DNA of 64,000 bases, from the NCBI RefSeq assembly GCF_988242995.1, contig NZ_OZ547043.1. The stretch is one strand, 5' to 3'. The notes beneath the pieces are model-generated. The model had not been told where the DNA came from. It saw nothing but the letters and a program-made list of their open reading frames with translations, and ran no database searches. Made by a program: the position numbers and the translations under genes. The stretch's first letter is position 1, and the number at the start of each line of letters is the position of its first letter. Positions 11,960 to 56,704 of the stretch are shown here, in pieces.

Positions 11960-12874
11960 ATGACAAACTTCACGACCAGCACGCCGCATGATGCATTATT
12001 TAAAACCTTTCTCACGCACCCTGACACTGCGCGGGATTTTATGGAGATTCACTTACCTAAAGATTTACGTGAACTGTGCGATCTCGATAGCTTAAAACTG
12101 GAATCCGCCAGCTTTGTCGATGAAAAATTGCGGGCGCTACACTCCGATATTTTATGGTCGGTAAAGACCCGCGAAGGCGATGGCTATATCTATGTGGTGA
12201 TTGAACATCAGAGCCGCGAGGACATTCATATGGCCTTTCGCCTGATGCGCTATTCCATGGCGGTGATGCAGCGCCATATAGAGCATGATAAACGCCAGCC
12301 GCTACCGTTGGTCATCCCGATGCTATTTTATCACGGTAGCCGTAGTCCTTACCCCTGGTCCCTGTGCTGGCTGGACGAATTTGCCGACCCGACTACCGCA
12401 CGGAAGCTTTATAACGCCGCGTTCCCGCTGGTGGATGTTACTGTCGTGCCAGACGACGAGATTGTGCAGCATCGCAGAGTCGCCCTGTTGGAGTTGATCC
12501 AAAAGCATATTCGCCAGCGCGATCTGATGGGGCTTATCGATCAACTGGTAGTATTACTGGTTACAGAGTGTGCTAATGACAGCCAGATAACTGCGCTGTT
12601 AAATTACATTTTACTGACTGGCGATGAAGCGCGTTTTAATGAGTTTATCAGTGAACTTACCCGTCGAATGCCACAACACAGGGAGCGAATAATGACGATT
12701 GCAGAGCGAATTCATAATGATGGATATATAAAAGGGGAGCAGCGCATTCTTCGATTGTTGTTGCAGAATGGGGCGGATCCTGAATGGATACAAAAGATTA
12801 CCGGACTTTCGGCAGAGCAAATGCAGGCATTAAGGCAGCCCTTGCCTGAGCGCTATTCATGGCTCAAGAGCTAA
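11960..12874 (+). CDS. rpnD: Recombination-promoting nuclease RpnD (YhgA/transposase_31 family, PD-(D/E)XK), intact 304 aa
   Basis: Single uninterrupted 304-aa ORF ([36 protein letters not shown]...), the characteristic Rpn N-terminus; K-12 carries this locus as the split pseudogene yjiP/yjiQ (from memory). Confidence 0.8.
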
Positions 12875-13117: not shown

Positions 13118-14530
13118 TTATTCCATTGCCCGATACACGGCCTCGCCAATTTGCTTCAGTGCTTCGCGATAGGTTTCGCTGAGCGGCAAAGCGCAGTTGA
13201 TGCGCAGACAATTACGGTATTTGCCGGAAGCTGAGAAAATCGAGCCTGCCGCCACCTGGATTTTCATGCGGCACAGCTGCCGCGCGACGCAGACCATATC
13301 GACCTGTTCAGGCAATTCTATCCACAGTAAAAATCCGCCTTTCGGGCGCGTAATACAGATTTCGCAGGGAAAATATTCCCGTATCCAGCAGGTATAAAGC
13401 GCCAAATTGCGCTGATAGATCTGCCGCATCCGCCGGATATGGCGATGATAGTGACCTTCCAGCACAAACGTTGCCGCCGCCATTTGCGTGGACGGCACAT
13501 TAAAGCTGCTGATGGCGTATTTCATATGCATCAGTTTATCGTGATAACGCCCCGGTGCGACCCAACCCACGCGCAGGCCTGGTGCAATACTTTTACTGAA
13601 CGAGCTGCACAACAGCACTCGCCCGTCGATATCCCAGGAATGAATGGTCCGCGGGCGCGGATACTCCGTCGCCAGTTCGCCATAGACATCATCTTCAAAA
13701 ATCACAATATCATGACGCTGAGCGAGAGAGAGAACGGCCCGTTTGCGCGCGTCCGGCATAATAAATCCCAGCGGATTATTACAGTTTGGCACCAGAATGA
13801 TGCCTTTAATCGGCCACTGTTCCAGCGCCAGTTCCAGCGCTTCAACGCTGATGCCAGTTTCTGGATCGGTTGGGATTTCAATCACTTTCACGCCCATGCC
13901 GCGCAGCATCTGCATCGAACCGTAATAACAGGGGGATTCGACCGCGACAATATCGCCCGGTTTACACACTGCCATTAACGCCAGCGACATCGAGTTATGG
14001 CAGCCGCTGGTGATGATGATGTCATCGGCGGTGACCACCGAGCCGCTGTCGAGCATCAGGCGGGCAATCTGCTCTCGCAATACTCGCTGACCGGCTAACA
14101 AGTCATAACCGAGAACGGTTTGCAGATTATGCTGCACCACCCGGCTTAGCTCCCGCCAAAGCGGTTTCAGGCTGGGCGCTTCGACATCCGGTGTGCTTTT
14201 GCTTAACGGAACAATGGAACTGTCGCTATGCGCCTCCAGCATATCCAGCACCTGATCCCACTGGGTAATTTCCACCGGGCGCTGCACCGGACGCGTCATC
14301 GGCGGTACTGGCGGCTGGGCTTTACGTTGTGCGACAAAATAACCCGAACGCGGCTGCGGAGTGATGAGCTTCATCGTCTCCAGCGTCTGATACGCCTGCT
14401 GCACGGTGCTGATACTGACGCCGTGCTCCTGACTTAAGCTGCGCACCGACGGCAATTTCTCCCCGTGACGATACAGCCCTTGCTCAATCCGCTCGGCAAG
14501 CAGAGTTGCCAGATGTTGATAACGCGTCAT
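13118..14530 (-). CDS. yjiR: MocR-type regulator YjiR (GntR HTH fused to PLP aminotransferase-like domain)
   Basis: 470-aa ORF; N-terminal GntR HTH (LPSVRSLSQEHGVSISTVQQAYQTLE); PLP-lysine motif SFSKSIAPGLRVGW. Confidence 0.85.
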   Translation of the reverse strand: MTRYQHLATLLAERIEQGLYRHGEKLPSVRSLSQEHGVSISTVQQAYQTLETMKLITPQPRSGYFVAQRKAQPPVPPMTRPVQRPVEITQWDQVLDMLEAHSDSSIVPLSKSTPDVEAPSLKPLWRELSRVVQHNLQTVLGYDLLAGQRVLREQIARLMLDSGSVVTADDIIITSGCHNSMSLALMAVCKPGDIVAVESPCYYGSMQMLRGMGVKVIEIPTDPETGISVEALELALEQWPIKGIILVPNCNNPLGFIMPDARKRAVLSLAQRHDIVIFEDDVYGELATEYPRPRTIHSWDIDGRVLLCSSFSKSIAPGLRVGWVAPGRYHDKLMHMKYAISSFNVPSTQMAAATFVLEGHYHRHIRRMRQIYQRNLALYTCWIREYFPCEICITRPKGGFLLWIELPEQVDMVCVARQLCRMKIQVAAGSIFSASGKYRNCLRINCALPLSETYREALKQIGEAVYRAME

Positions 14531-14706
14531 GCTGTATTCCTTATTTGGACCATACAGAGAGAAAAACCGGTACAGATGAGGCTAAAAAACCGGATGCAGA
14601 TGCTGTTTTAACCTGTCTGTATGTTAAATAAAACTAATATTTGCATCTGTATTGTGAACTGCCTGAAGGTGGATGATGAAGCCTCTGAAAGATGAGGAGG
14701 CAGCAG

Positions 14707-14871
14707 ATGGAATTTTACGAAAACAAAGCCAAAACGCCGTTTATCAGACTTGTGCAACTCTGGCAGGCGGTGAGGCGTTGGCGGCGGCAAATGCAGACCC
14801 GACGAGTGTTACAGCAGATGAGTGATGAGCGGTTGAGGGATATCGGGTTACGCAGGGAGGATGTGGAGTGA
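14707..14871 (+). CDS. yjiS: DUF1127-family small protein YjiS (54 aa); below the ORF-track size cutoff
   Basis: ATG at 14707 preceded by a strong GAGGAGG Shine-Dalgarno; product MEFYENKAKTPFIRLVQLWQAVRRWRRQMQTRRVLQQMSDERLRDIGLRREDVE; stop TGA 14869-14871. Confidence 0.7.
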   Translation: MEFYENKAKTPFIRLVQLWQAVRRWRRQMQTRRVLQQMSDERLRDIGLRREDVE

Positions 14872-15320
14872 GGGGGATATAGATTTATATATAATAAAAC
14901 GTTTTTATGTTGTTAAATTAAGTTATAAAAATTTTCCCGAGACAATTCATCAATAGGTATGGAGTGTACAGGAATATCTTCTTCACTAACCTCTTTAAAC
15001 TCATACTGATAACGGTCAAAAAACGCACAGTGATTACTTGTGTTTTTTGACTGACTTTACAACTCTCATTATTCGCTATTGTGCAGTTTCTCTAATTGTT
15101 TTATATCCTGGAATGTTAAATGTCAGCTACTGAATACTTTTTGATTGTTTGAGATTTATTTTCATTTGAAATTATAAAATCAGGTGATAAATGAGTTGTG
15201 ATTAATAGATGGTTGATATCATTTTTATCAAAAATTGATTTCTAGTATCGACCTTAAAAAATAGTTGTTGCCGCTTGGTTAATTATACGATATTTTGAAA
15301 AGTTTTCTTTCAAATTAGAA

Positions 15321-18300
15321 ATGTTGTGGGGTTTTGTTTTTGTATCTTTTATCTCTAAGGAGCTTGCTTTGGGTCAATCAGAATACATTTCATGGGTAAA
15401 ATGTACTTCCTGGCTAAGTAACTTTGTGAATCTTAGAGGGTTGAGACAACCGGATGGACGTCCTCTTTATGAATATCATGCAACCAATGCTGAATATAAC
15501 CAATTAACGCAGCTACTCTGTGCTGTTGGTCAATCACAATCTAATATATGTAATAGAGACTTTGCTGCCTGTTTTGTTCTTTTTTGCTCTGAGTGGTACC
15601 GCAGGGATTATGAACGGCAATGCGGATGGACGTGGGACCCTATATATAAAAAAATAGGGATTTCATTCACCGCCACAGAGCTTGGTACTATCGTACCGAA
15701 AGGGATGGAAGATTACTGGCTGCGCCCAATTCGATTTTATGAATCTGAACGACGTAATTTTCTCGGAACATTATTCAGTGAAGGTGGTTTACCTTTCCGG
15801 CTACTCAAAGAATCAGACAGTCGCTTTCTGGCTGTTTTCTCCAGGATCCTTGGACAATATGAGCAAGCAAAGCAGTCAGGTTTTTCTGCCCTTTCGCTGG
15901 CAAGAGCTGTCATAGAAAAATCAGCGCTGCCAACTGTTTTTAGCGAAGATACCTCTGTAGAACTTATCAGTCATATGGCTGATAACCTCAATTCCTTAGT
16001 ACTTACTCACAACCTAACAAATCACAAAGAACCAGTACAACAGCTTGATAAGGTTCACCCTACCTGGCGAAGCGAGTTTCCAATACCGTTAGATGATGAA
16101 ACAGGAACGCATTTTTTGAATGGACTGCTATGCGCAGCCTCTGTAGAGGCTAAGCCTCGACTACAAAAAAATAAGAGTACGCGTTGCCAATTCTATTGGT
16201 CAGAAAAGCATCCAGATGAGCTTAGGGTGATAGTATCTCTTCCTGACGAAGTTTCCTTTCCTGTAACTAGCGAGCCGTCAACTACGCGCTTTGAACTTGC
16301 CATTTATGAAGATGGTGAGGAAGTCTCTGGCCTTGGGCCAGCCTATGCTTCCCTGGAAAACAGACAGGCAACAGTTCGATTACGTAAAAGCGAAGTGAGA
16401 TTTGTCAGGCAAAATCCATCTGCAGGTTTGTCGTTAGTGGCTCGTGCTGGAGGGATGATTGTTGGGAGCATTAAACTTGATGACAGTGAAATTGCCATTG
16501 GTGAGGTGCCGTTAACCTTCATCGTTGATGCAGATCAATGGCTGTTACAGGGACAGGCCTCCTGCAGTGTGCGAAGCAGCGATGTTCTGATTGTGCTCCC
16601 TCGGGACAATAGCACTGTTGCTGGTTTTGATGGCCAATCGAGTGCAGTAAACGTATTAGGACTTAAAGCGCTACCTGTTAAGGGATGTCAGGACGTTACA
16701 GTTACAGCAAATGAAACTTATCGGATTCGCACCGGAAGAGAACAAATCAGCATCGGAAGGTTTGCTCTAAATGGAAAGCGTGCAAGCTGGGTTTGTCATC
16801 CAGATGAGACATTTATTGGTGTACCAAAAGTCATTTCTACACTACCAGATATTCAAAGCATTGATGTAACGCGTTACCTGAGCGGAATTTCAATTGAGCA
16901 ATGTCATATACAAGAGATGCTAGGGGCTCAATATCTTTCTATCCGTAATAGTAATAATGAAACGCTCTTGCGTCGCAAAATCGGTATCTTGCCTGCTGAT
17001 TTCAGTATTGAGATAAAAGGTGGAATGCACGCAAATGAAGGCACTATCGTAATCACCACACAGCATCCTTGTGTAGCAACACTTAAAGATAAAACATTGG
17101 AGGCTACACGTAAGCGTACTGAGGGGCGAACAGAGATACAACTCAAAGCGGAAGGGGTACCTCCGGCATTTATTACATTACAAGTTCTGCCTAATTTGGC
17201 GGCTGATACCATCGACATTGAGTTACCTTTCCCAGCTAAAGGCTGCCTTGCTCTTGATGTAAACGGACGTCCTCTGGATAAAAACATTACGCTGCATGAT
17301 CTGCTGGGTTCCAGAGCATTCCTGTTCTCCAGAAATGGTGAGCCGACAAAATATACATTGCAGTTGCATTTGCGCTCCATTAGTGGATTACAGGCATGGC
17401 ACGAATGGAGTTATACGGCATTGAGCGAGCGTCCTGTTGAATTGAATCTCTATAGTCTACGTGAACACATTGAAAATCTGATTTCACTTGAGGCAGGTAT
17501 TGATCAGGTTGTTGAGATGCGTATTACGGGGGCGGGTGTGGTCATGGCCTGGCAAATTCGTCGCTATAAATACAGCCTGCGCTATGATTATGAAAAAGAA
17601 CTATTACTCAGCCAGTCAGTGAACCATCGTGCTGGACAGATTCCTTCCCCCGTTATCATGCTGTTAAGTGAACCCGAGAGGAAATCCATTCCCTTAGCAT
17701 CAAGAATGAGCGAGGGAGTGCCTGTCGGTGAATATGAGTTGAGCTCAATCGTTAACAAAAACGGACCATGGTTGGTTGTTCCTAAACCGGGTGAAGAGAT
17801 GGCTTTTCGCCCCTGCTTCATTCGTGGCGAATCTTCGTTACCGGTAGAAGAAAGCAACATCCGCTCATTGCAGAAAGCGACCCAGCTTTTTAATCCACAG
17901 GCAGAAGTTAATACCATCACACGGGTTCTCGGACAGATGGCTAACGATCCTGCCCATTCCGGCTGGCAATTTATGCGTAGCCTGTACGATCAATTTGGTT
18001 ATTTACCGCTGGCAACCTTTGAAGTATGGCGTGCACTAGTGCAGCATCCGCAGGCATTGGCGATGTCGCTCTTCAAATTCGAAATGTCAGCAGAGTATCT
18101 GAGTCGTATTGAGAATGAGTTCCCTATTTTATGGGAGTTTTTCCCCATCTTTGAGATCAAAGCTGCATCTGAGCGTTTCAAATTGTTCCTGAGCCAAAAA
18201 GGTGCACCGGAGGAAACCCAGAAATTACTGGTTACCAATATGTTTCAACGGCTGGGGCTCGTGTTCCCGACATATGCCGATGAAATTGAGAAATGGTTAA

Positions 18301-18659
18301 GTAATGGATATCTCCCCCCGTCTATTCCTGAATCTTGTGTCCACGGGTGGTATCAGGAGCTCTTACGTGAGCACAGTGAAGCTCGCTGGCCTGAATACGG
18401 CTGCAAGCGTCTGTATAAATGGATGATGTCACAAAAAAATCCAGTGATTGGTATTAATCCTGACGCAAATCACCGCTATTCCGTGGCCTGGTTACCCGTC
18501 TTCGCCGCAGCGGTGGCAAGCGGAAATGCTTCTTTTGAATCTGTATTTGACCGTAAACCCGGTGCCGTATTTTTCCTGAGGCAAGTCAGGGATTTCGATT
18601 CCCGCTGGTTTAAGGCCATCTTCCAGTTCAGCCTGTTGCGTTATGTTGCTAAAAAATAA
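15321..18659 (+). CDS. yjiT: Large protein of unknown function (1112 aa); intact counterpart of the K-12 yjiT pseudogene; candidate DruH-like partner of the downstream helicase
   Basis: Uninterrupted 3.3-kb ORF with no motif I recognise; AT-rich 5' end; alternative in-frame TTG start at 15369 has a perfect AAGGAG Shine-Dalgarno; stop is 12 nt before the next gene. Confidence 0.8.
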   Translation: MLWGFVFVSFISKELALGQSEYISWVKCTSWLSNFVNLRGLRQPDGRPLYEYHATNAEYNQLTQLLCAVGQSQSNICNRDFAACFVLFCSEWYRRDYERQCGWTWDPIYKKIGISFTATELGTIVPKGMEDYWLRPIRFYESERRNFLGTLFSEGGLPFRLLKESDSRFLAVFSRILGQYEQAKQSGFSALSLARAVIEKSALPTVFSEDTSVELISHMADNLNSLVLTHNLTNHKEPVQQLDKVHPTWRSEFPIPLDDETGTHFLNGLLCAASVEAKPRLQKNKSTRCQFYWSEKHPDELRVIVSLPDEVSFPVTSEPSTTRFELAIYEDGEEVSGLGPAYASLENRQATVRLRKSEVRFVRQNPSAGLSLVARAGGMIVGSIKLDDSEIAIGEVPLTFIVDADQWLLQGQASCSVRSSDVLIVLPRDNSTVAGFDGQSSAVNVLGLKALPVKGCQDVTVTANETYRIRTGREQISIGRFALNGKRASWVCHPDETFIGVPKVISTLPDIQSIDVTRYLSGISIEQCHIQEMLGAQYLSIRNSNNETLLRRKIGILPADFSIEIKGGMHANEGTIVITTQHPCVATLKDKTLEATRKRTEGRTEIQLKAEGVPPAFITLQVLPNLAADTIDIELPFPAKGCLALDVNGRPLDKNITLHDLLGSRAFLFSRNGEPTKYTLQLHLRSISGLQAWHEWSYTALSERPVELNLYSLREHIENLISLEAGIDQVVEMRITGAGVVMAWQIRRYKYSLRYDYEKELLLSQSVNHRAGQIPSPVIMLLSEPERKSIPLASRMSEGVPVGEYELSSIVNKNGPWLVVPKPGEEMAFRPCFIRGESSLPVEESNIRSLQKATQLFNPQAEVNTITRVLGQMANDPAHSGWQFMRSLYDQFGYLPLATFEVWRALVQHPQALAMSLFKFEMSAEYLSRIENEFPILWEFFPIFEIKAASERFKLFLSQKGAPEETQKLLVTNMFQRLGLVFPTYADEIEKWLSNGYLPPSIPESCVHGWYQELLREHSEARWPEYGCKRLYKWMMSQKNPVIGINPDANHRYSVAWLPVFAAAVASGNASFESVFDRKPGAVFFLRQVRDFDSRWFKAIFQFSLLRYVAKK

Positions 18660-18671
18660 AAAGGAATAAGG

Positions 18672-21600
18672 ATGACTACACGCTATTTTTCGTCACTTAT
18701 TGAACAATCGTTGTCTCGTTCAACTGAAGCAACGCTCAGTATCATGGGCGTTACAAACCCGCAGTTGCGTGAACATCTCGCGCAGCAAATGGGGGCTGAT
18801 TGTGGGAAACCGGGCTCATTCCTTGCTTCTCCGGTATTCCAGCAAATGTTTGGCTGGAAGGAGTCAAACCACACGATGCGCAGTCTGACGGAAGGCAACG
18901 CATTGTTGAGCAAAGCAGTGGTTGATTCACTGGATGATCAGAGTAATGGCCGGTACCGATTTGGTGCTGACTGGAAGCCTTTTACACACCAGTTAGCCAG
19001 TTGGAAAGCTTTGCTGGAAAAGAAACATTCAGTGGTGGTAACCAGTGGTACGGGTTCAGGTAAAACGGAATGTTTTATGGTACCGGTGCTGGAAGATCTT
19101 TACCGGGAACTGCATGAAAATGGCAACAATCCGTTGGTCGGTGTCCGAGCCCTTTTTCTCTATCCATTGAACGCCTTGATTAATTCACAGCGCGAGCGTC
19201 TGGATGCCTGGACGCGTGGTTTTGGTACTGGGATCCGCTACTGCTTGTATAACGGAAATACAGAAGAGCTCCACGCAAAAATGAAAACAGTGCAGGATAA
19301 TAGACCAAATGAAGTCTTATCCCGTGAAAAGATGCGTCTGGAGCCAGCCCCGATTCTGGTGACCAACGGCACGATGCTGGAATATATGATGGTTCGCCAG
19401 GTCGACGCCCCGATTATCCAGCAATCCAAAGCACAAAAATCACTACGCTGGATTGTACTGGATGAAGCGCATACCTATGTCGGGTCGCAGGCCGCTGAAC
19501 TGGCACTCCAGCTGCGTCGTGTGATGACAGCGTTTGGCGTGACGCCAGATGATGTGCGCTTTGTAGCGACCTCTGCGACCATTGCCTGCAGCGACGCCGA
19601 AAAGCAGCTGAAAAAATTTCTCTCTGAATTATCCGGTATCCCGCAGGAGCGCATCGATGTTCTGGACGGAAGTCGGGTGATTCCTGAACTGGAACCATCC
19701 AAAAACGTTTCTGTTCCGTTAGACGAAATAGAGCAAATACCTGATCTGGATCTAAAAGATAAAAATGATAATAAAATTAAAGGGATAAGCCCTGAGCGCT
19801 TTTATGCGCTTACGCACTCCCCCGAAGCGCGTTACATACGTGAAATGTTGGTTAGCCAACCCAATCCAATGAAACTGGATGAGATGACGCAGCGGTTAAA
19901 TGCGCTGACAAAACAGCATTACAGCCAGCAGGAAGTACTGCGTTGGATCGATGTCTGTTCAGGGACTCAACCTAATGCAAAGGATCCCGCATTTCTTAAA
20001 GTCAGGGCGCATATCTTCCAGCGTAATACCCAAGGAATATGGGCTTGTGTTGATAAAGATTGCAGATTAAAGCACGGTACACCGCTCGAAAAAGGCTGGC
20101 CCTTTGGCTATGTGTATGTGAACCAGCGACAAAATTGTGACTGTGGAAGCCCTGTATACGAAGTTGCATTCTGTAATGATTGTAATGAGCCTCATCTTCT
20201 GGCGCAGGACAAAAAGGGCAAACTTGTCCAATGGGAAAATAAAGGTGGCGATGAGTTCTCCTTGCAGGATGAAGTACCTGTTGAACATGACACTACAGAG
20301 GAAAAAGTCGAAAAAGAGAACGGTTTCCTGCCTCCGTTGATTATTGCCGCAGGAGAGACCAGCGAGACAGGCTATACCCTACAACGCCTCGACCACCAGA
20401 CGCGCCGTATTGGCGTTATTAACAATGACAGCATTCCGCTGATTATTAATGATGTTGAACAGGTTTGTAGCGCCAGTGGCTGTGGCTACAGAGGCATGAG
20501 TGGGAAACAGCCCTTCCGGCGTGCACTATTAGGTGGGCCATTTTACGTTACTAATATCGTGCCCACCGTTCTTGAGTATTGTCAGGACTTTACCAGTGAT
20601 GAAGGCAAAGAGGGCGTCGGACCAGATTCGTTGCCAGGGCGAGGACGTCGACTCATTACCTTTACGGACAGTCGACAAGGTACAGCTCGAATGGCGGTGC
20701 GTATGCAGCAAGAAGCAGAACGCAGTCTCTTACGCGGAAGCGTAGTCGAAATTCTGAGCTGGCATCAACGGACGCAAACGTCCACGGCGCCGAATGCCAA
20801 TGCCGATCTGGAAAAATTAGCGGCCAGGGCAAAGCAAGCCCGTGAGCAGGCAGAAGAATATCGAAGCTGGGGAATGCCAGACCAGGCGAAATTGTCACAA
20901 GCACAGGCTGAACAGCTTGAACAGGCTTATCAGGCTGCAACCGGTGGAAAAGCAGCAACTACCCTGGTATCCCGCACCTGGACAGAAATGGTTAACGAGC
21001 TTAAAGATAAAGCCGATATCCGTGGCCCGGTACTGAAATATAACCACTATTTGCAGCCTGAAGTGTTTAATAAAAACGGCGGGCCACTAAAGCTTTCGGA
21101 AATGTTGTTGTTCCGGGAATTCATGCGTCGCCCTAAACGGACTAACAGCCTGGAAACACAGGGGCTGGTTCAGGTTGGTTACCAGGGGCTGGAGAAAATA
21201 CATAAGAGCCCCTTGCACTGGCAGGAAAAAGGATTAACGCTGGATGACTGGCGCGATTTTCTCAAGGTTACGTTGGATCTTTATGTTCGCGAAAGCAACT
21301 TCACACAGCTGGATGATGAGCTGAAAAACTGGATTGGTAGCCGTTTTTCATCAAAATTCGTCCGTAACCCGGAATCAAAAGATCCTGAAGATAATCAGAA
21401 CAGACGCTGGCCTCAAATTCGTAATGGCAACGTATCCCATCGTTTAGCGAAGTTACTGATGCTGGGGGCTGGATTCAAAACCGTCAATACGGCGACTATT
21501 GATATTATCAATACATGGCTGAAAGAAGCATGGGCCCAACTTACCGGACCACTTGCAGTACTGAAACCCGATGGCAACCGTTTTTATTTACCGAAAGAGC

Positions 21601-24600
21601 ATATGACTTTTTCTTTAATCACGGATGCCTGGATTTGCCCGGTAACCAATAAAATCCTGGATACGGCTTTTAAAGGCTTAACCCCTTATCTGCCCACCCA
21701 TATTTCGTTCGAGCATCTTACCCAGGCGCAATATGACACTTTTGTCGCGCAGAAAGTCACCATGCCGGAAATCTGGAAGCTGGATCGTTCACAGGAAGAC
21801 TACGCAGAGGGTCTGGCAAAAGCACGAGACTGGGTCAACAATGATCCGCTGATCGCACAATTGCGGTCGGAAAACGTCTGGACAGACATCAACGATCGTG
21901 TAGTGGAAGGCGGTTTCTACTATCGCACTGCCGAGCACTCTGCCCAGCAGTCGTCAGAACGCCTGCAAAGCTATGAAAAGATGTTCAAGAACGGGCAACT
22001 AAATGTTCTCAACTGTTCCACCACCATGGAAATGGGGGTTGATATTGGGGGCATTACTGCGGTGGTAATGAACAACGTTCCGCCACATCCGGCCAACTAT
22101 TTACAGCGCGCCGGGCGAGCCGGGCGTAGTAAAGAATCACGCGCGATCTCTTATACCCTATGCAAAGGTAACCCACACGACCAGCAGGTTTTTGCCAACC
22201 CACTCTGGCCATTTGAAACCATGATCCCGGCACCCATGGTCGCGATGAACTCCGCCCGACTGGTGCAACGTCACGTCAATGCATTATTACTGTCTGACTT
22301 TTTATGTAACGTTATTGGCGAAACCGATAAAGAGAAAACCAGCCTCGATAGCCTCTGGTTTTTCGGTGAAGATGACGGGCAGTCAAAATGCGAACGCTTT
22401 AAAGTCTGGCTGGAACGCCCGGTTCTTGATATCGACATGGCGCTGGAACGGCTGGTGAAAGGTACGGCGTTGCATGGCGCAAGAGCCGAACATCTGCGGG
22501 ATAAAACAATCAATGCGATCACCTTCCTGCAACAGCGGTGGCTCTCCGTTTATCGCGATCTCGTGACCCAGGAGCGTGAGTCGCAGCCGCAAACGCCTTA
22601 TCGTAAGCGCATAGAGCTGGAGAAGAAACGGCACTGTGGCGAGTATCTGCTGCGCGATCTGGCTGCCAGAACCTTCCTGCCGGGATACGGTTTCCCGACA
22701 GATGTAGTGACGTTTGATAACTTCACGATGGAAGATTATATCCGCGAAAAATCGCAGAAAAGTCGTGATAAAAAGGACCGTGAAGATAACGTCTCCCGTT
22801 ATAAAGGATTACCTTCCCGTAACCTCGGTGTTGCCATTCGTGAATATGCACCGGGAGCAGAGATCATTCTTGATGGTCGTGTCTTCCGCTCTGCCGGTGT
22901 CTCACTGCACTGGCACAACATTAATGCTGATACCAATGAAGCCCAGCGTCTGGATTGCGCCTGGCGCTGTCACAAATGCGGGACCATTGGCTATGAAGAG
23001 GGGATGAGCAGTTCCGGGATGCTCTTTTGCTCCAACAGCGCCTGCGGCGAAAAAATAACCATGGATAATCGCCGTCAGGTGTTGCAGCCTGCCGGGTTTG
23101 TCACCGATGCACACGCTCCGGTAACGAACAATATTGAAACCATGAAATTCGTCCCGGTTGTCCCCGCGTGGGTCTTTGTTAAAGCAGAGCCTGTACCGTT
23201 GCCTAACCCGCTAATGGGTTATATGGCTTCTGGGGCTGATGGGCATGTTTTCCAGCAAAGTTTGGGGGAAGGTGGACACGGTTATGCATTGTGTCTGAGC
23301 TGTGGCCGTGCGGAGTCGATGCTGAATGAAAATGATGCACCGAAAAGTATGGAAGCTCACTATCCACCGCGTCCGGGTAAAGCGGACCGCGACAGCCAGA
23401 ATCATCGTCTGATTTGCCCCGGTTCGACGGCACTCATGAAGAACGTCACCCTGGGCGCACTGGCGCGCACCGATGTCTTTGAAATGGTTCTGCGCAAACC
23501 GCAAAACGGCGAGTATCTGCCAGATAACACAGAAGAGGGGCGGATTGTCGCTATGACTCTGGCGGTTGCTCTGCGTCAGGCGCTGGCAGGCGTTCTGGGT
23601 ATCTCCGCCGCAGAACTCGGCTATTCTGTACGTCCGGTCAGACTGGAGGATGGGCAATCGGTATTAGCCGTTCAGCTTTATGATGTGATCAGCGGTGGTG
23701 CTGGTTTTGCCTCCAGCGCACCGGTACATATTGAAGCTATATTGCAGGGAATGGTGAAACAGTTAGGCTGCCGCCATTGTGATACTGCATGCAGTGAATG
23801 TCTGCTTGATTCCCAGACTCGCCACGATCACGATTTGCTGGATCGCAAAGTGGCGCTGGCTTGGCTTGGCGATGACTTCACGTATTACATCGGTTTACCG
23901 GATGAAGAGACATTCTCGCTGCCGGATGCCCGCTACTGCCCTGGCGCTATTGGCGATACGATTCGCCGGGCGATTAACGAAGGCGCTGAAAAGCTCACCC
24001 TGTGGATGACTGGCGCGCCCAATGAGTGGGATTTATACGGCCGTCAGTTCCGCGCGGCTATTCAGAGCTATCGGCTAAAAGACAACGTCGAGGTCGATCT
24101 TGTTATTCCTGCGGGAGTGGATGACCCAGACCTGTTGCATGAACTATCGCAATTTACTGCGCTGGGTGTGCGGTTGTGCCATGTTGAGCAGGAGCTGCAA
24201 TTACCGATTGTTGCCCAGGTCACCTTTGCCGATCGCGTGATGACGCTGGCCTCTCGCAGTCAGCAGGCAACGATTCCGGGGCCGGAGTGGCACCTGAATG
24301 ACGAACTGGTGGTGCGTAGTCTCGGTTATCAAACGGTAGAACTGAACGAGTTTATTCTGCCCGCTAAAGCCGCCAACGCTGTCGAGCGGGTCAAAGACAT
24401 TCAGATCCACAAACAGTTGAATGGACCACTTTCGCAGTTTGGGCAACGCTTCTGGGACGTGCTGTTTAACGACCATGAAGAAGCGCAGTCACTGATGAAA
24501 AACACGCGAATTACCGGCGTTCACTATACCGATCGCTATCTGCAAAACCCGGTTGCGCTGGCGTTGTTGGGATCAATTCTGAAACCGCTAAAAACAAAGC

Positions 24601-25016
24601 TGACCGATGGCGCTGAAGTGGCGCTGGATACGCTGTTTAAAGATAAAGATCGCCCCGGTAACCGGCCTTTCCATGACTGGATGAGCATAGCGGATTTTCA
24701 GGATTTCGCTGATCAGTGGTTTGCTGCTGCGCTGGGCAGGCCGATAGAACTGACGGTGTTCGATTCGCCGCGCGATATCCCTCACCATCGTAAACTGACG
24801 GTGACTTTTGAGGATGGTCAGGTATTGAAGATCCGCTTCGATCAGGGGATGGGCTACTGGCGCATCAACTTTGCATCGCAATGGCATTACTTTGATTTCC
24901 GCGATGACGTTTCTTTCCAGTTAGTCAAAATGGCTCAGGCCTGCAAGGAAGGGAATGTGGCCAACAGCGAAGAGAGCTGGGCAACGGATGTGCTGGTGGA
25001 GGTGATCGCCTCCTGA
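18672..25016 (+). CDS. yjiV: Giant SF2 (DEAH-type) helicase with Cys-ribbon modules (2114 aa); intact counterpart of the K-12 yjiV pseudogene; candidate DruE-like defence helicase
   Basis: AAGGAATAAGG Shine-Dalgarno before ATG 18672; Walker [10 protein letters not shown] (aa 124-132, nt 19041-19067); motif II VLDEAH (aa 262-267); motif [10 protein letters not shown] (aa 1145-1152); Cys clusters near nt 20046-20184 and CxxC...CxxC near nt 23292-23812. Confidence 0.85.
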
Positions 25017-25023
25017 TGATGTG

Positions 25024-25050
25024 CCGCTCCCGACGTCGTGTCGGGAGCGG
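25024..25050. terminator. GC-rich stem-loop between convergent yjiV (druE-like) and mcrC; possible bidirectional terminator or RNA-stability element
   Basis: 11-bp perfect stem CCGCTCCCGAC / GTCGGGAGCGG with a 5-nt loop; no clear U-tract on either strand. Confidence 0.45.
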
Positions 25051-25072
25051 TATTGTCTATAAAACTTACCGC

Positions 25073-26119
25073 TTATTTGAGATATTCATCGAAAATGGCG
25101 AGTAATTCTTGATGTATACACGGCCATTCCTGACCTAAATTGACGGTACACAGGCCAATATCGAAGCCATTAATTTTATAACGATGTTTCACTGCGGTGT
25201 CTACGTGGGGGTATATTAATAAACCCCCTATGTTTTCGCCATTTTCAGGTTTTAACGACCATAAGTAATTCATCAGTTGATAAAGATTTTGAGAGTGAAA
25301 TTTTTCTGAGCCCATTCGTCGTGAAAAAATGCTCTTATAGTATTTGGCGTCAACGATAAGTATTTTTTCTGATGAGCGAATGGTGATGTCAGTTTCCATT
25401 CGAGGTAACAAATTAAGTGACTGATCCGATATGCTCGATGCATCCCATTTTAAATAAGAGCGGGTTGTATTTGCAGACGTTAATTCACGGCGGCAAAATT
25501 CAAAAAGAAACTTTTGATAAAGTAATGACATCTCTTTTTCGTTTCTTTCAAAATCATAGAAACGGTAGTGTCCTTTGTTTTGACCTGGGATAGAATTATT
25601 GACGATGAACTTACAGACGCTGATAACAAATTTATAATAACGCGTGTTCTTTCCGCCATTCAGATAGCTGAAATGCTGCGGAGTTAAATGAAGAGTGCTA
25701 ATGCCCGGTAATTTTCTATAAAGTGAACGAGCTTCATCTCTGATGGTTGAGTTTAACTTTTCATGCTTAATTAACATGGCTAATGTGCTTTTTATAATTC
25801 GGTTAGCCAGCGTATCTTCATTAAGCAGATCAAAAGTACTGACGGTTTTCCCATGATTAAGATGGAAGCCGCGTATTGTTTTAGCAAACTCTATTCGCCC
25901 TTTGATGCCAGGAATGATCTCGGTATTAGGATTGTAATCAAGCTCAAGCCCTCGGCGTGAAAGCTGTAAAACCCCTTTATTTAATACATACCCCAGGATA
26001 TCAAGAAGATTGTTACCGGGAATGGCTTCAAGGTCGGCCTGCTTAATTTCCTGTAAATAACCCCATGCATAGGTAAGCATGTAATAGATATTACGGACAG
26101 GTATCACGGGCTGTTCCAC
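25073..26119 (-). CDS. mcrC: McrC, nuclease subunit of the McrBC modified-cytosine restriction system
   Basis: 348-aa ORF; its start overlaps the mcrB stop; AT-rich codon usage typical of mcrBC; matches McrC length. Confidence 0.9.
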   Translation of the reverse strand: MEQPVIPVRNIYYMLTYAWGYLQEIKQADLEAIPGNNLLDILGYVLNKGVLQLSRRGLELDYNPNTEIIPGIKGRIEFAKTIRGFHLNHGKTVSTFDLLNEDTLANRIIKSTLAMLIKHEKLNSTIRDEARSLYRKLPGISTLHLTPQHFSYLNGGKNTRYYKFVISVCKFIVNNSIPGQNKGHYRFYDFERNEKEMSLLYQKFLFEFCRRELTSANTTRSYLKWDASSISDQSLNLLPRMETDITIRSSEKILIVDAKYYKSIFSRRMGSEKFHSQNLYQLMNYLWSLKPENGENIGGLLIYPHVDTAVKHRYKINGFDIGLCTVNLGQEWPCIHQELLAIFDEYLK

Positions 26120-27498
26120 TATGAGTCACCTAATAATTTGTCGGCCCATATCTGTTGTTTATAGGGGTCATCAAAGAAATATTCTTCGAGTAAAGGGGCG
26201 ATATCCGTCATCACAATTTCCTTAAGCCATTGCGTATCAGGAGAGGTGCCATCTTCCAACCCGGAGCAGAAGTAACTATGCCCAATGCGGAATCCTTTCC
26301 CAAGGATAGTGGCCTCTTTGCTGATTTCCTGGTTTAACTCATTCATTTTTTGGCATAAAGACTCAACAAATGAAGGTTCTGCTTTTTTATTCAGTAAAAA
26401 ATTACGGAACTGTGGTGTATCAAAACCAGGCTCAATATCTATGAAAGAAAATCGTCTGCGCAGGGCATAATCAACAACGGCCAGAGAGCGATCGGCAGTA
26501 TTCATTAAACCGATAATATAAACATTCTCCGGGACATAGAATCGTTCTTCATCGTTTTCGGAATAGGTTAAGGGAACAGACCAGTTTTCACCTCGTTTAT
26601 CATGTTCCATTAACATCATCACTTCGCCAAATACTTTACTGAGATTGGCACGATTGATTTCATCTATAATAAAAACATACTTTTTCTCTGGCTGCTCTTT
26701 AGCTTGCTGACAAAAATTGTAAAATATGCCGTCTTTACGTCGGAAGCCGACGCCATTCGGACGATAGCCCTGTATAAAATCCTCATAGCTATAAGATTGA
26801 TGGAACTGAACCATATTGACGCGTTGCGGAGCCTTTTCTCCTGTCAGCAGGTAAGCCAGACGGCGTGCAACAAAGGTTTTTCCAACGCCGGGCGGCCCCT
26901 GGAGGATAATATTTTTTTTGATGGTTAATCGTTTGAGTATCGTCTCTATCGTGGTTTCAGGGATAAACAAATCATTTAACGCATCTTCCAGACAGTATGA
27001 TTCAGTTTTTGACATAGGTGGAATAACACTCTTGCCAGAATTAAATATTAATTTATAGTCGTTGATTATGTTGTCCAGCATGGAGGCAAACCGGGTATAA
27101 TCAAGACCCTGTGAGACTTTTTGGGAACAGGCGTAATAGGACTGTCCGTATTTTTTAGGATAAACACCTGAAGTTGTCTGGAAATACTCTGCGATTGTTT
27201 TAGGTATGTCTGAAGAGAACTGCCATTGGGCATGTGGTTTATTCGTGTCGCTTATACCATAAGCCAAAACCAACTCATCAAAATCTTTATAATAGAGAAT
27301 AACGGGATATATACCGTTAGAAACTTCCTGACCTTCTCCCAGAAATGCAAACCAGGGAATAGATGTAAAATTGCCATAACCGAAACTCACTTTTACTCGC
27401 AGGTTACGGTAAGACGTTGGATAATCTTTGGTGGATTGTGAACTTTTTTGCTGTGCTTGCTCAATAAATTTTTCAATCCAGGCTTGAATTGATTCCAT
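26119..27498 (-). CDS. mcrB: McrB, GTP-binding AAA+ DNA-binding subunit of McrBC
   Basis: Start at ATG 27498 (MESIQAWIEKF..., AGGAAGG Shine-Dalgarno) gives 459 aa; the ORF-track Met six codons upstream is the alternative; Walker A GPPGVGKT; in-frame internal Met162 (codon 27013-27015) matches the known McrB-s short form. Confidence 0.9.
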   Translation of the reverse strand: MESIQAWIEKFIEQAQQKSSQSTKDYPTSYRNLRVKVSFGYGNFTSIPWFAFLGEGQEVSNGIYPVILYYKDFDELVLAYGISDTNKPHAQWQFSSDIPKTIAEYFQTTSGVYPKKYGQSYYACSQKVSQGLDYTRFASMLDNIINDYKLIFNSGKSVIPPMSKTESYCLEDALNDLFIPETTIETILKRLTIKKNIILQGPPGVGKTFVARRLAYLLTGEKAPQRVNMVQFHQSYSYEDFIQGYRPNGVGFRRKDGIFYNFCQQAKEQPEKKYVFIIDEINRANLSKVFGEVMMLMEHDKRGENWSVPLTYSENDEERFYVPENVYIIGLMNTADRSLAVVDYALRRRFSFIDIEPGFDTPQFRNFLLNKKAEPSFVESLCQKMNELNQEISKEATILGKGFRIGHSYFCSGLEDGTSPDTQWLKEIVMTDIAPLLEEYFFDDPYKQQIWADKLLGDS

Positions 27499-27659
27499 AA
27501 GATGTGCCTTCCTCATTGCTAAGCCTCTATTATCGCTTTCGCAACGTACTGAAACAATAGATTTTTACTGCAAAAGGTGGTGGGTAAATATTTACTGAGG
27601 GGGAAAGTTTCTATTGAGTCAGTGGAAGGCTCCCGGTGGTTAACCGGGAGTAAACGCTG

Positions 27660-28001
27660 TTACGCGACTTTCTGTTTACCGGCAATCACTCCAATAAACG
27701 CCTGCACCTGCTTTTGTTTACGTGCCGACAGCTTGCACACCTGGCGCAGCGACTGCATCAGTTCGCTCTCTTCGACGGCGAGTGGTTGGGCGGTGAGGAC
27801 AATACAGCCTTCCATCACTTTGACATCTACCGCCGTGCCGGTGGTAAAACCGGCGGCTTCCAGCCACTGACCTTTCAGGGTGATGGCGGGAATACGGCTG
27901 TAATCCGGGTAGCGACTCGCATAACTCACGGTTAATTGACGGTTATTTGCCGGGGAGACTTCTGCTTCGAACGGTTGTGCAATAGAATGCATGTCAGTCA
28001 T
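27660..28001 (-). CDS. symE: SymE, SOS-induced toxin-like protein (AbrB-fold; YjiW)
   Basis: 113-aa ORF ([52 protein letters not shown]...); LexA-box-like site about 78 nt upstream. Confidence 0.85.
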
Positions 28002-28071
28002 GATTACTATTCCTTAGAAATAGGGATTGTGATTAGCGGTGCGGGTGTGTTGGCGCACATCCGCACCGCGC
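27995..28071 (+). ncRNA. symR: SymR (RyjC) cis-antisense sRNA opposite the symE 5' end; coordinates approximate
   Basis: Candidate -10 TAGAAT at 27983-27988 on the + strand inside the symE 5' coding region; transcript would cover the symE start codon and Shine-Dalgarno and end at a GC-rich hairpin (about 28035-28071); ends not verifiable here. Confidence 0.4.
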
Positions 28072-28078
28072 TAAATAC

Positions 28079-28094
28079 CTGGATATATCATCAG
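28079..28094 (-). promoter_or_regulatory. LexA (SOS) box-like operator upstream of symE
   Basis: CTG-N10-CAG palindromic 16-mer (bottom strand CTGATGATATATCCAG) about 78 nt upstream of the symE start; consistent with the known SOS control of symE. Confidence 0.6.
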
Positions 28095-28185
28095 TAAATA
28101 CCGGGAAAGTCCAGCTAAAAATAGAATAAAATGGGCAATTTCCGGAATGATTTAAATATATTTATGTGAGTTATGATTGGCGAGA

Positions 28186-28215
28186 AATAATAAAAAGCGC
28201 ACCGGAAAGGTGCGC
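28186..28215 (-). terminator. Rho-independent terminator downstream of hsdS
   Basis: Stem GCGCACC / GGTGCGC with GGAAA loop at 28197-28215, followed on the minus strand by a T-rich tract (complement of 28186-28196), 14 nt after the hsdS stop. Confidence 0.7.
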
Positions 28216-28228
28216 CAGAAAATAATGA

Positions 28229-29653
28229 TCAGAACTTTTTACGCGAGGCTTTTTTACCCCCGCTGGCTGCGCGCTCAGCTTTGATTTTCTCCAGCAACGC
28301 AGCGGCGCTGTTTTCTCCGCTGATTAAATCCGGGTTTTCGGCCCGCCACTGGGCGGTGAGTTCACCACGGAACGCTTTTGCCAGGATGGATTGCGTCAGG
28401 TTGTTGACGCGGGCTAAGGCGTTGTTGACCTGTTTTTCTATGGAGTCGGCGTAGGCGAAGAGTTGCTCGACGCGGCGAACGATTTCGTGTTGTTCTTCTA
28501 TAGACGGTAAAGGGACAAATGCATTTTTAAGATCTTTTAAATTTAATGTCTTTCTGGCGACCTCCTTAGATGACTGAACTAGCCATGTTTGCATAACTGG
28601 TGAACTTAACCATATATGGAGAAACATAGGAACAATAATCTTATATTCAGGAGATATTCTGGCAACGGCACGAGCGATATTAACATTTATATCTTCTCTA
28701 ACAATACCTATTCTACCTATAGCCCCAACAATTGTTACAAGAATGTCATTCTTTCGTACTTTGGAACGCTTATATTGTAAATCTATTTCCTTTGAAATTT
28801 TACGAAGATGATTTAAATCTACTTCACCATCGTTAATATCACAAACACGAATTAATTCTATACCGTCTTTTATATCATCTCCAGGTTGCACCACACCATA
28901 ACATAATGGTCTTTGTGTATTGATAATGTTATTCAAAATTGTTTCACTCCAGTCTTCTGGAATAAGGATTTTGTAGTTATCTAATTCAACTTTTTTTGTT
29001 ATAAAATCTTTATCTTCTTTGGTCAACCTACCAGTTACTGCCGCAGCCAACACCGCCTGACGAAAACGTTTCAGGATTTGTGGGATTTGCTCAAGGCGTG
29101 CTTTGGTGCTGTCTACCTGCGCCAGCAGCGTATCGAGTTTTTCAGCGATGATTTTTTGCTCGGCAAGTGGTGGCAACGGAAGTAGGGTATCTTGAAGTGT
29201 CCTGGAAGAAAGATGCTTTACAGTAACCGAGGACGTATTTGCATTGATTGCGGATAAATATCCTGGTAAGGCGTGATAGAAAAACCTTTTATTGTATTTG
29301 TCTTCCTGAACTTCAATTTTACATACTCGTTGATTTAACAGAGCTGGTTCTGAGCACCATATAGTTGCATTAAAATCACCATCCATTCCCACGATTAAGT
29401 CTTCGGGATATACCCAATATCCCTCAGGAATTTGACCCGAGTAATAAGTCGATGTATTACCTTTTAGAACATCACGAATTCTAATTAATGGTACACCATC
29501 TTTACGATTATTAAATTCTGACGACTTAAAAGCAAAACCGTTTGTGATGTTTGCTACGGAATCCATTGAAATACGTAACCAGCTATCATGGATTGAAAGT
29601 AACCCATTGATATTTTGCTCAATTAATTCTTTTGATGTTGAGTTGAAACTCAT
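28229..29653 (-). CDS. hsdS: Type I restriction-modification specificity subunit HsdS (474-aa allele)
   Basis: 474-aa ORF; GC-richer conserved N-terminal, central and C-terminal segments separated by two very AT-rich blocks (target-recognition domains); 4-nt overlap with hsdM. Confidence 0.9.
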   Translation of the reverse strand: MSFNSTSKELIEQNINGLLSIHDSWLRISMDSVANITNGFAFKSSEFNNRKDGVPLIRIRDVLKGNTSTYYSGQIPEGYWVYPEDLIVGMDGDFNATIWCSEPALLNQRVCKIEVQEDKYNKRFFYHALPGYLSAINANTSSVTVKHLSSRTLQDTLLPLPPLAEQKIIAEKLDTLLAQVDSTKARLEQIPQILKRFRQAVLAAAVTGRLTKEDKDFITKKVELDNYKILIPEDWSETILNNIINTQRPLCYGVVQPGDDIKDGIELIRVCDINDGEVDLNHLRKISKEIDLQYKRSKVRKNDILVTIVGAIGRIGIVREDINVNIARAVARISPEYKIIVPMFLHIWLSSPVMQTWLVQSSKEVARKTLNLKDLKNAFVPLPSIEEQHEIVRRVEQLFAYADSIEKQVNNALARVNNLTQSILAKAFRGELTAQWRAENPDLISGENSAAALLEKIKAERAASGGKKASRKKF

Positions 29654-31239
29654 TCCTTCACCCCACCAAACGCTTCTTCCAGCAACTGACGCTGTGCATC
29701 CGCCTCATCGCTCGCTCCCAGTTCACGTATCAGCGCATCCAGTTCGCCCAGCGCCTGTACCAGCTCGCCCATCGCTTCTGCCGCTAATACATCCGGCTCC
29801 GGCAGGTTGTCGGCATCAATGCTATCTTTATCTTTCAGCCAGGAGATATCCAGCGAATCGGATTTCGTGGTGCGGATCCACTCGCGGGTGAACTTACGCC
29901 AGCGGCTGGTAGCCAGGTGCTGGTCGGTGTTTTTGTTCTCTTCGCTGTCGGCAACTTCCGTCTCTTCGGCGTTAAAACTCCATTCCCCTTCGCTACGCGG
30001 GCTTAAACCGTGCGGATCTTCGCCATACACGCGCTCAAACGGCTGCAGATGCTCGTCGGTAAACGGCGTGCGTTTGCCGAAGCTCGGCATATTGGTACGC
30101 AGGTCGTACACCCACACATCATCGGTACAGTTCTTATCCTGATGCGGGTTCGCCACCGTCCCTTTGGTAAAGAACAGCACGTTCGCCTTCACGCCCTGCG
30201 CGTAAAAAATACCGGTCGGCAGACGCAGAATAGTGTGCAGATGACACTTATCCATCAGGTCACGACGGATGTCCGTGCCTTTGCCGCCTTCAAACAGCAC
30301 GTTATCCGGCACCACCACCGCCGCACGACCGCCGGGGTGCAGTGTTTCGATAATATGCTGCATAAAGCACAATTGTTTGTTGCTGGTCGGGTGAACAAAG
30401 GTACGGGTAATGTTGGTGCCTGCGGCGCTACCAAACGGCGGGTTAGTGGCGACAATATGCGCCTTCGGCAGGTTTTCACCGTCGCTACCCAGGGTGTTGC
30501 CCAGACGGATTGCGCCACCGTGGTCGAGGTTGCCTTCGATATCGTGCAGCAGGCAGTTCATTAGCGCCAGACGACGGGTGCCGGGTACCAGTTCGAGGCC
30601 GATAAACGCGCGGTGGATCTGGAAATCCTGCGTGTCGCCATCAAGGTCGTCCAGATCGTTAGTCTGCGACTTAACGTAGCGGTCAGCTTCAATCAAAAAG
30701 CCCGCTGTACCTGCTGCCGGGTCCTGCACCACTTCACGCGGCTGCGGTTTCAGCAGATGAATAATGGTTTTAATCAGCGGACGTGGGGTGAAGTACTGGC
30801 CCGCGCCAGACTTGGTTTCGTTGGCGTTTTTCTGCAACAGCCCTTCGTACATATCGCCGAAGTCATCGCGTGACTTACCGTGCGCGCCGTTGTACCAGTC
30901 CAGTGAATCCATATTGCTGACCAGTTCGGTCAACTGTTTCGGCTGGGTAATGGTGGTGTTGACGTTCTGGAACACCGCCTGCACCAGCTTTTGATTGTCG
31001 GCGCCCAGATGCACCAGCAGGTTACGGTAGAACTGCAACTGCTCCTGGCCGATGCGGGATTTCAGGTCATCCCAGCGGTAGCCTTCCGGCAGGTATTCCG
31101 CTTCCTGTCCGGTTTCTTTACACATTTTCAAAAACAGCAGCGAGGCGAGTTCATTGACGTAGTTTTGATAGGAAACGCCGCCATCGCGCAGGTTGTCGCA
31201 CAGTTTCCACAGCTTCGCGACCAGATCGTTATTGTTCAT
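29650..31239 (-). CDS. hsdM: Type I R-M N6-adenine DNA methyltransferase HsdM
   Basis: 529-aa ORF; catalytic NPPF motif (VATNPPFGSAAG); AdoMet-binding region. Confidence 0.95.
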   Translation of the reverse strand: MNNNDLVAKLWKLCDNLRDGGVSYQNYVNELASLLFLKMCKETGQEAEYLPEGYRWDDLKSRIGQEQLQFYRNLLVHLGADNQKLVQAVFQNVNTTITQPKQLTELVSNMDSLDWYNGAHGKSRDDFGDMYEGLLQKNANETKSGAGQYFTPRPLIKTIIHLLKPQPREVVQDPAAGTAGFLIEADRYVKSQTNDLDDLDGDTQDFQIHRAFIGLELVPGTRRLALMNCLLHDIEGNLDHGGAIRLGNTLGSDGENLPKAHIVATNPPFGSAAGTNITRTFVHPTSNKQLCFMQHIIETLHPGGRAAVVVPDNVLFEGGKGTDIRRDLMDKCHLHTILRLPTGIFYAQGVKANVLFFTKGTVANPHQDKNCTDDVWVYDLRTNMPSFGKRTPFTDEHLQPFERVYGEDPHGLSPRSEGEWSFNAEETEVADSEENKNTDQHLATSRWRKFTREWIRTTKSDSLDISWLKDKDSIDADNLPEPDVLAAEAMGELVQALGELDALIRELGASDEADAQRQLLEEAFGGVKE

Positions 31240-31439
31240 TGTAAGTTCCGTAAATTAAGCAGCGGCCCGCATGTTCGGGGCCGCAGAAGAAGAAATTGCC
31301 GAGGGTAATATACACAAAATCATTCAGATTGCATCAAGGCGGCAAGTGAGCGAATCCCCGGGAGCGTACAGAAGTACTTGACCGGGGTAAACGAGCGCAG
31401 CCAACGCAGAGGCAGCCTGAAGGATGAAGTGTATACGTG

Positions 31440-40375: not shown

Positions 40376-40392
40376 CTTAACCTCCTGCTGCG

Positions 40393-56566: not shown

Positions 56567-56593
56567 TAAGGCGAGATTATTAAAGTTGCCATG

Positions 56594-56627: not shown

Positions 56628-56644
56628 CTGTTTCTCAATGATGT

Positions 56645-56695: not shown

Positions 56696-56704
56696 AGTCA
56701 GGAA

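Follow-up and report, generated by a model that had tools for sequence, protein, structure and literature searches.

The 64,000-nucleotide (nt) stretch of DNA analysed here, called the window below (contig NZ_OZ547043.1 of NCBI RefSeq assembly GCF_988242995.1), carries at 18672..25016 on its plus strand a gene whose product of 2114 amino acids (aa) is the large helicase DruE, encoded by one of the two genes that make up the anti-phage system Druantia type III. Its RefSeq product name in the window is merely "DEAD/DEAH box helicase". The protein is a YprA/MrfA-like superfamily 2 (SF2) helicase with inserted and appended domains, and the overall picture, in which we place high confidence, would be that of a single motor of the YprA/MrfA lineage that bears modules both between and after its two halves and is furnished with 20 zinc ligands. 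An initial annotation, made from the letters of the sequence, had described this layout as unusual. It is so merely in comparison with minimal SF2 helicases, and is in fact the defining layout of the DruE family.

Both members of the system are identified by profile matches of great strength. The open reading frame (ORF) at 18672-25016 matches the PADLOC profile DruE3 (PDLC00037) with E=0 and 2692.5 bits over residues 1-2110 of 2114, that is, across the whole protein. Directly upstream, an ORF at 15321..18659 (plus strand) matches the PADLOC profile DruH3 (PDLC00049; E=0, 1829.8 bits) as well as the NCBIfam family YjiT_fam (1276.9 bits against a cut-off of 150); in the annotation of the identical record of Escherichia coli strain 789, this Druantia type III partner gene, druH, goes by the name yjiT. 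Only 12 nt separate the druH stop from druE on the same strand, and a reading of the intergenic sequence places the ribosome-binding site AGGA ahead of the druE ATG. Thus, the window holds two features by which Druantia type III is recognised, a DruE profile match spanning the entire protein and an adjacent, same-strand DruH of the YjiT family. In the E. coli immigration control region, druE and druH/yjiT are transcribed together; a promoter and terminator scan around the druHE operon gave no signal above shuffled background. The longest druH ORF opens with an ATG at 15321 and encodes 1112 aa, while the RefSeq start of yjiT lies 48 nt later, at 15369, for a product of 1096 aa. The shorter form is plausible, given that the first residue of the long form to be covered is 19 in the PADLOC match and 31 in the NCBIfam match. 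An antisense ORF of 148 aa with a TTG start, located inside druE at 23211-23657 on the minus strand, is probably spurious.

The helicase motor and its inserted blocks

Motifs I, II, III, V and VI of SF2 helicases each occur once in DruE. Motif I (GTGSGKT, aa 126-132, nt 19047-19067), motif II (DEAH, aa 264-267, nt 19461-19472) and motif III (TSAT, aa 300-303, nt 19569-19580) lie in RecA1 (~aa 100-335, 18969..19676, plus strand as for all parts of druE), which is recognised by a single Pfam DEAD match at aa 106-310 (E=2e-22). Motif V (aa 1117-1127, nt 22020-22052) and motif VI (aa 1145-1152, nt 22104-22127) are found in the C-terminal part of RecA2 (~aa 1081-1185, 21912..22226), delineated by a single Helicase_C match at aa 1085-1153, which spans positions 41-109 of the 110 in the model, and by comparison of a family profile with MrfA. 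One MZB match (PF09369, ~aa 1631-1711) completes the Pfam picture. The motifs and cysteine clusters listed in the initial annotation were all located in the sequence within a few residues of the positions it gave. Its figure of some 880 residues between the two sets of motifs was right as to the existence of a large gap, and somewhat too high as to its size: 849 residues separate the end of motif II from the start of motif V.

A gap of 849 residues could conceivably arise from the fusion of an N-terminal ATPase with a separate C-terminal helicase, yielding two independent cores, the arrangement that the initial annotation had set against its own split core. An AlphaFold2 (AF2) model without a resolved RecA2 is also compatible with such a fusion. 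Nonetheless, two cores are extremely improbable on several grounds. The Walker A/DEAH set is single, as is Helicase_C, and the intervening 745 residues (aa 336-1080) gave neither an NCBIfam family match nor a Pfam helicase domain. The order of parts is, furthermore, that of single-core MrfA. A family profile built from 32 members aligned with Bacillus subtilis MrfA in three pieces, all in order: MrfA 58-230 corresponds to RecA1, MrfA 339-419 to profile positions 1095-1176 in the C-terminal half of RecA2, and MrfA 685-730, which contains CPCHDGCPSC, to the C1700-C1710 knuckle discussed below. Cryogenic electron microscopy (cryo-EM) of homologous DruE also reveals one RecA1/RecA2 ATP site per protomer. 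Given the single motif set, the lack of a helicase signature in the insert and the MrfA-like order of parts, DruE would possess, as had initially been supposed, one SF2 RecA1-RecA2 motor of the YprA/MrfA lineage and not two cores.

By homology, the gap of ~850 residues would be made of two blocks instead of one insert, and its parts would follow one another in the order helical domain, double-zinc domain, start of RecA2, and duplex-binding domain with a helical dimerisation subdomain. The first block, situated after RecA1, would begin with the helical domain (~aa 336-452, 19677..20027), which appears as helices in the AF2 model, takes its name and boundaries from homologues, and has been published as a winged-helix (WH), BrxA-like or five-helix domain (10.64898/2026.05.12.722862; 10.64898/2026.05.13.724758; PMC12458937). 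It would continue with a double zinc-binding domain (~aa 453-645, 20028..20606) bearing eight invariant cysteines, assigned from conservation and from the homologous dZBD/ZBM_L, which has two zinc motifs and touches duplex DNA (10.64898/2026.05.13.724758; 10.64898/2026.05.12.722862). The second block (~aa 701-1080, 20772..21911) would be embedded in RecA2. It has no family match and was mapped from the DruE of E. coli O157:H7; its published names are duplex-binding domain and Cap domain. The putative dimerisation subdomain within it (~aa 704-756, nt 20781-20939) is poorly conserved and was mapped from K683-N753 of the O157:H7 protein, and the AF2 model has long helices at 669-756. Between the two blocks, the same homology would place a conserved stretch at aa 659-672 (20646..20687), which would supply RecA2 with its first strand and motif IV and thereby probably mark its start. 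The encompassing region 646-695 is 82% conserved, and the stretch itself gives a weak match, with order kept, to the "IVFSDSRQ" stretch of PDB entry 9wae.

Behind the motor come, in order, a region of extended winged-helix, OB and connector domains with two zinc motifs (22227..23561; delineated by its invariant ligands, the AF2 model and Foldseek), the MZB (DUF1998) domain with a four-cysteine knuckle (23562..23900; PF09369, E=7.9e-9), and two C-terminal PLD-like domains (23901..25013) that lie outside the range of the initial annotation. For aa 1157-1747, AF2 returned a mean predicted local distance difference test score (pLDDT) of 79.8 and a predicted template modelling score (pTM) of 0.81. 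The top Foldseek match of this model is MrfA (6znp_A, E=6.6e-6, 391 columns), and the second is DISARM DrmB (7s9v_B); the TM-scores of the fold matches are low (0.26), which is unsurprising for a flexible module of several domains. The model speaks for an MrfA-like roof (WH-OB-CON-MZB) behind the motor. The DruE entries 9tu7 and 9wae were not returned from the Foldseek PDB library, which holds entries released up to 8 April 2026; 9tu7 came from a sequence search, in which DruE 5-2089 aligns to residues 11-2089 of the chain (E=0). In the PLD-like domains, the canonical HxK(x)4D motif was not found, there being no H.K....D match after DruE residue 1700. These domains contain an invariant D1954-R-Y (1954-1956) and an invariant H2038-x-R2040. 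That nucleic-acid-binding zinc modules are inserted in the motor, and that an MrfA/DUF1998-type module is appended to it, had both been anticipated in the initial annotation, and Pfam, the profile order and the cryo-EM structures of homologues all agree on it.

Cysteine clusters and predicted zinc sites

The cysteines of DruE cluster beyond chance: 11 pairs of cysteine neighbours stand within 5 residues of each other, where shuffled sequences have 2.7 +/- 1.5, and a count of 11 is reached in a mere two of 20,000 shuffles. Two cysteine-rich stretches fall in the insert, at aa 459-469 (nt 20046-20078) and aa 489-507 (nt 20136-20192). CLSCGRAE follows much later, at aa 1541-1548 (nt 23292-23315), and a last stretch occupies aa 1699-1710 (nt 23766-23801), its knuckle C1700/C1703/C1707/C1710 being encoded at nt 23769-23801. 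The initial annotation had correctly noticed this last cluster, and the span 23769-23812 that it gave is replaced here by 23766-23801. Absent from its account were C599/C604, C1433/C1436/C1453/C1458 and C1582.

Conservation of these residues was followed in an alignment of 120 sequences, in which the query is joined by those 119 of the 120 matches listed that are full-length homologues, 50-98% identical to it. Nineteen clustered cysteines (459, 464, 489, 491, 501, 504, 599, 604, 1433, 1436, 1453, 1458, 1541, 1544, 1582, 1700, 1703, 1707 and 1710) are invariant in 120/120, which answers in the affirmative the initial question of whether the cysteines are conserved across homologues. H1563 is invariant in 120/120 as well; C1429 is not conserved among the aligned homologues. 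All 19 cysteines and H1563 are kept even in the 36%-identical DruE of E. coli O157:H7. Eight of these ligands lie in the inserted domain, eight in the OB region and four in MZB, a total of 20 and therefore enough for five tetrahedral zinc sites. In the studied DruE, five zinc motifs were modelled by cryo-EM with the same distribution: the inserted double-zinc domain and the OB region have two apiece, and MZB has one (10.64898/2026.05.13.724758).

Within the inserted domain, the ligands would sort into the predicted sites {489, 491, 501, 504} and {459, 464, 599, 604}. In the OB region, C1433/C1436/C1453/C1458 (nt 22968-23045) probably form a third. The two cysteines of CLSC (1541/1544), together with H1563 and C1582 (nt 23292-23417), most likely constitute a separate predicted site. 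The fifth, the MrfA-type zinc module, would be the self-contained C1700/C1703/C1707/C1710 knuckle, which aligns to C1681/C1683/C1687/C1690 of the studied E. coli DruE; mutating these four residues, the MZB zinc motif of that protein, abolishes defence (10.64898/2026.05.13.724758).

This assignment departs from the initial annotation in one respect. The presence of an MrfA-type zinc module after the core had been rightly foreseen, but CLSC had been proposed as its other half, so that CLSC and the 1700-1710 cluster would make up one split module. Both clusters are invariant and both reside in the appended, MrfA-like half, which speaks for such a partnership. However, the 1700-1710 cluster alone supplies four ligands and the knuckle is thus already complete, leaving no vacancy for CLSC. 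It also aligns residue for residue with the MrfA knuckle and with C1681/1683/1687/1690. CLSC, for its part, is located ~90 residues ahead of the start of the Pfam MZB match and has invariant partners of its own in H1563 and C1582, and the five zinc motifs reported in the homologue are separate. A split module is therefore very unlikely, and CLSC is better placed in a site of its own.

Conceivably, the cysteine clusters could also bind iron-sulphur clusters, or act as disulphides or redox switches, in lieu of holding structural zinc. The identity of a metal is not readable from sequence alone, and 4Fe-4S clusters are used by some helicase-nucleases, those of the XPD/DinG and AddB families. Against such a role stand the four-cysteine site of MrfA, where four closely spaced cysteines in a short coil bind a zinc proven by anomalous diffraction, and the DruE cryo-EM structures, in which all five motifs were modelled with zinc. 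The spacing of the CxxC, CxC and Cx4C knuckles, carried on beta hairpins, is likewise of the zinc-ribbon type, and one site appears to use a histidine. Iron-sulphur or redox chemistry is accordingly very improbable, and structural zinc remains the preferred reading of the clusters.

Published DruE structures and a proposed mechanism

A split core with zinc-binding inserts has already been described in structural papers of 2025-2026. Bell et al. (2025; PMC12458937) predicted the Druantia insertions as a BrxA-like domain after RecA1, a zinc-binding beta-barrel, and a MarR-like domain in RecA2, with extra zinc modules inside the OB-CON-DUF1998 roof. Four preprints of 2026 contain cryo-EM structures (10.64898/2026.05.12.722862; 10.64898/2026.05.13.724758; 10.64898/2026.05.13.724313; PMC13192584). 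Hu et al. (10.64898/2026.05.12.722862) reported that ~60% of the mass belongs to DruE-specific domains arranged around an MrfA-like core; among these domains, a two-site large zinc module and the Cap domain together grip and over-twist the duplex. Himpich et al. (10.64898/2026.05.13.724758) distinguished eleven domains (RecA1, WH, dZBD, DBD, DD, RecA2, eWH, OBZ, MZB, PLD1 and PLD2) and described 3'-to-5' unwinding along with lock, wedge and clamp elements. A further preprint presents a helicase-nuclease with zinc clusters (PMC13192584). Phage defence that needs both druH and druE has been shown for homologues.

The closest structural reference is E. coli DruE of the OI-172 island type (EDL933/ECOR19; PDB 9tu7-9tuc), of which 9tu7 is the O157:H7-type protein with a 4-residue tag; the O157:H7 sequence used here was taken from a RefSeq genome (L002:5713-12027). 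It has the same order of parts across its full length and the same SF2 motifs as DruE of the window, and is also paired with a DruH/YjiT-family gene. Its wedge F1327 is F1341 in the window protein, and its clamp H1698 is H1718. The two differ in chromosomal site, the window gene lying beside mcrBC/hsdRMS and the OI-172-type gene beside Zorya II and a further helicase-methyltransferase system, and in the MZB knuckle, which reads CxxCx3CxxC in the former and CxCx3CxxC in the latter.

DruE of Pseudomonas aeruginosa, studied by Loeff, Chanez and Jinek (10.64898/2026.05.13.724313), has INS and Stalk domains within RecA2, cysteine-rich zinc motifs, DUF1998, OB and a PLD nuclease pocket. This pocket contains Asp-Arg-Tyr and His-x-Arg, and both motifs, mapped as such, are invariant in the family of the window protein. 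A P. aeruginosa homologue at hand, P0035, is 60% identical to DruE of the window; as a stand-in for the published protein it was rejected, because its residue numbering did not match and it is a different protein. More distantly, B. subtilis MrfA/YprA (PDB 6ZNP, 6ZNS) has the same RecA1, RecA2, WH-OB-CON-MZB roof and four-cysteine zinc knuckle. Unlike DruE, this 749-residue DNA-repair helicase is devoid of extra zinc motifs and PLD domains, and ~110 residues lie between its RecA1 match and the motif V region, compared to ~790 in the window protein. DrmA and DrmB of DISARM belong to the same helicase lineage, and PADLOC gives weak DrmA matches on RecA2. DISARM, however, has its helicase core in one protein and its DUF1998 module in another, and the partner genes are also different.

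Several points weigh against the reading of the window protein advanced here. The packing of its split RecA halves rests on homology. With a 32-sequence alignment, AF2 modelled aa 1-1200 at a mean pLDDT of 67 and a pTM of 0.42, with pLDDT <50 in both RecA2 segments (621-675 and 1083-1200) and in residues 1-10, a candidate N-terminal strand joining the RecA2 sheet as in MrfA; Foldseek matched this model to RecA1 alone (MrfA at 3.3 A over 259 columns). Domain parsing by AlphaFold, as had been suggested at the outset, thus delivered an MrfA-like module for aa 1157-1747 but not the RecA2 of the N-terminal portion. An artificial splice of aa 640-700 to aa 1080-1200 scored 51.9 bits with Helicase_C against 49.7 for the control, the match then starting at model position 31, not 41; a gain of 2 bits is too small to prove that RecA2 begins with 646-700. 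Zinc occupancy is inferred. So, the MZB site excepted, is the grouping of cysteines into sites, because no explicit zinc-ligand residue numbers were found in three structural preprints on DruE.

The E. coli DruE studied by three groups, moreover, is the OI-172-type protein, which shares only 36% identity with DruE of the window and differs from it in several dimer-interface and clamp residues. Y191, R1258 and R1025 of the former are replaced by A202, K1278 and K1036, and the counterpart of H1023 is missing. W1480, a clamp of the tracking strand, aligns to the conserved V1496, and a conserved W1500 lies four residues on (aa 1496-1500, window 23157-23171); either the alignment has slipped in a loop, or the lineages truly differ at this point. 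Published work is also split on the need for the PLD domains and on the nuclease role of PLD and DruH (10.64898/2026.05.12.722862; 10.64898/2026.05.13.724758; PMC13192584; 10.64898/2026.05.13.724313). Finally, no paper was found in the literature that studies the DruE lineage of the immigration control region directly, the available structures and assays being those of other lineages.

If the window protein operates as its homologues do, it would dimerise via the helical subdomain at ~704-756 and load on DNA at a fork or at a single-stranded 3' tail. The RecA floor and the OB/MZB roof would enclose the tracking strand as it threads through, with the double-zinc and duplex-binding domains forming a platform that would hold and distort the incoming duplex ahead of the fork, and ATP hydrolysis would power 3'-to-5' unwinding of phage DNA. 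The main task of the zinc sites would be to lend rigidity to small hairpin modules; in the homologue, DNA is contacted by two of the five. Following reports on homologues, DruH may be a single-stranded DNA binder or a 3' exonuclease that senses or prepares the substrate, and the PLD-like domains may degrade DNA.

Genomic setting and significance

The 9.7-kb druHE operon is 100% identical to that of E. coli strain 789 and of several further strains, the identity with the strain 789 record having been established over the druHE query. In strain 789, druHE lies between yjiS and mcrC and is followed by mcrB, symE, hsdS, hsdM, hsdR and mrr, which is the setting of the classic E. coli immigration control region. 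In the window, this region occupies 25073-36054, 3' of druE, where the minus strand encodes mcrC, mcrB, symE, hsdS, hsdM and hsdR and the plus strand encodes mrr. Druantia III therein directly adjoins type IV and type I restriction systems. The GC fraction is 0.43-0.49 over druHE, mcrBC, symE and hsdS (window 14000-30000), against 0.50-0.55 in most of the flanks, and the low GC of the druHE-hsdS stretch fits a horizontally acquired, variable island. Among 5426 complete E. coli genomes, 231 contain the druHE operon to an extent of 80% or more, and another 443 contain only parts of it; in K-12, the match to a 2.1-kb druE probe is limited to the first 145 bases.

That the protein is a housekeeping RNA helicase regulating motility and not a defence protein, as the RefSeq name "motility-regulating DEAH-box RNA helicase" for O157:H7 DruE would have it, is exceedingly unlikely, since a druE deletion was without effect on fliC expression or motility (Himpich et al., 10.64898/2026.05.13.724758), the gene resides within a restriction island by mcrBC and hsdRMS, druHE is variably present with remnants in many genomes, and homologues defend against phages. 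The name itself is likely to mislead annotation transfer.

Other features of the window are noted in passing. The SymR antitoxin small RNA at 27996-28072 (plus strand; RF01809, 93.1 bits against a gathering score of 61), the sole Rfam match in the window, is antisense to the 5' end of symE (27660-28001, minus strand). Just upstream of yjiR-yjiS-druH, at 11960-12874 (plus strand), lies an intact ORF of 304 aa annotated as an Rpn-family recombination-promoting nuclease/putative transposase. The annotation of the strain 789 record lists hpaB as a pseudogene with an internal stop (~40390-41960, minus strand) and lgoR as frameshifted (~56560-57470, minus strand).

The locus is recognised by standard defence-system profiles and carries little weight as a discovery. 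Its value is modest and lies in annotation: an intact Druantia III is present in the classic E. coli restriction island, of which many genomes, K-12 included, keep part. There is a small chance, worth entertaining as speculation, that DruHE of the immigration control region might cooperate with its McrBC and type I neighbours, perhaps in that restriction cleavage would provide it with single-stranded tails or ends to load on, or might use its zinc modules or dimer interface differently from the proteins studied so far. This lineage could thus be used to test both the generality of the published unwinding and dimerisation and the cooperation of Druantia with restriction systems.

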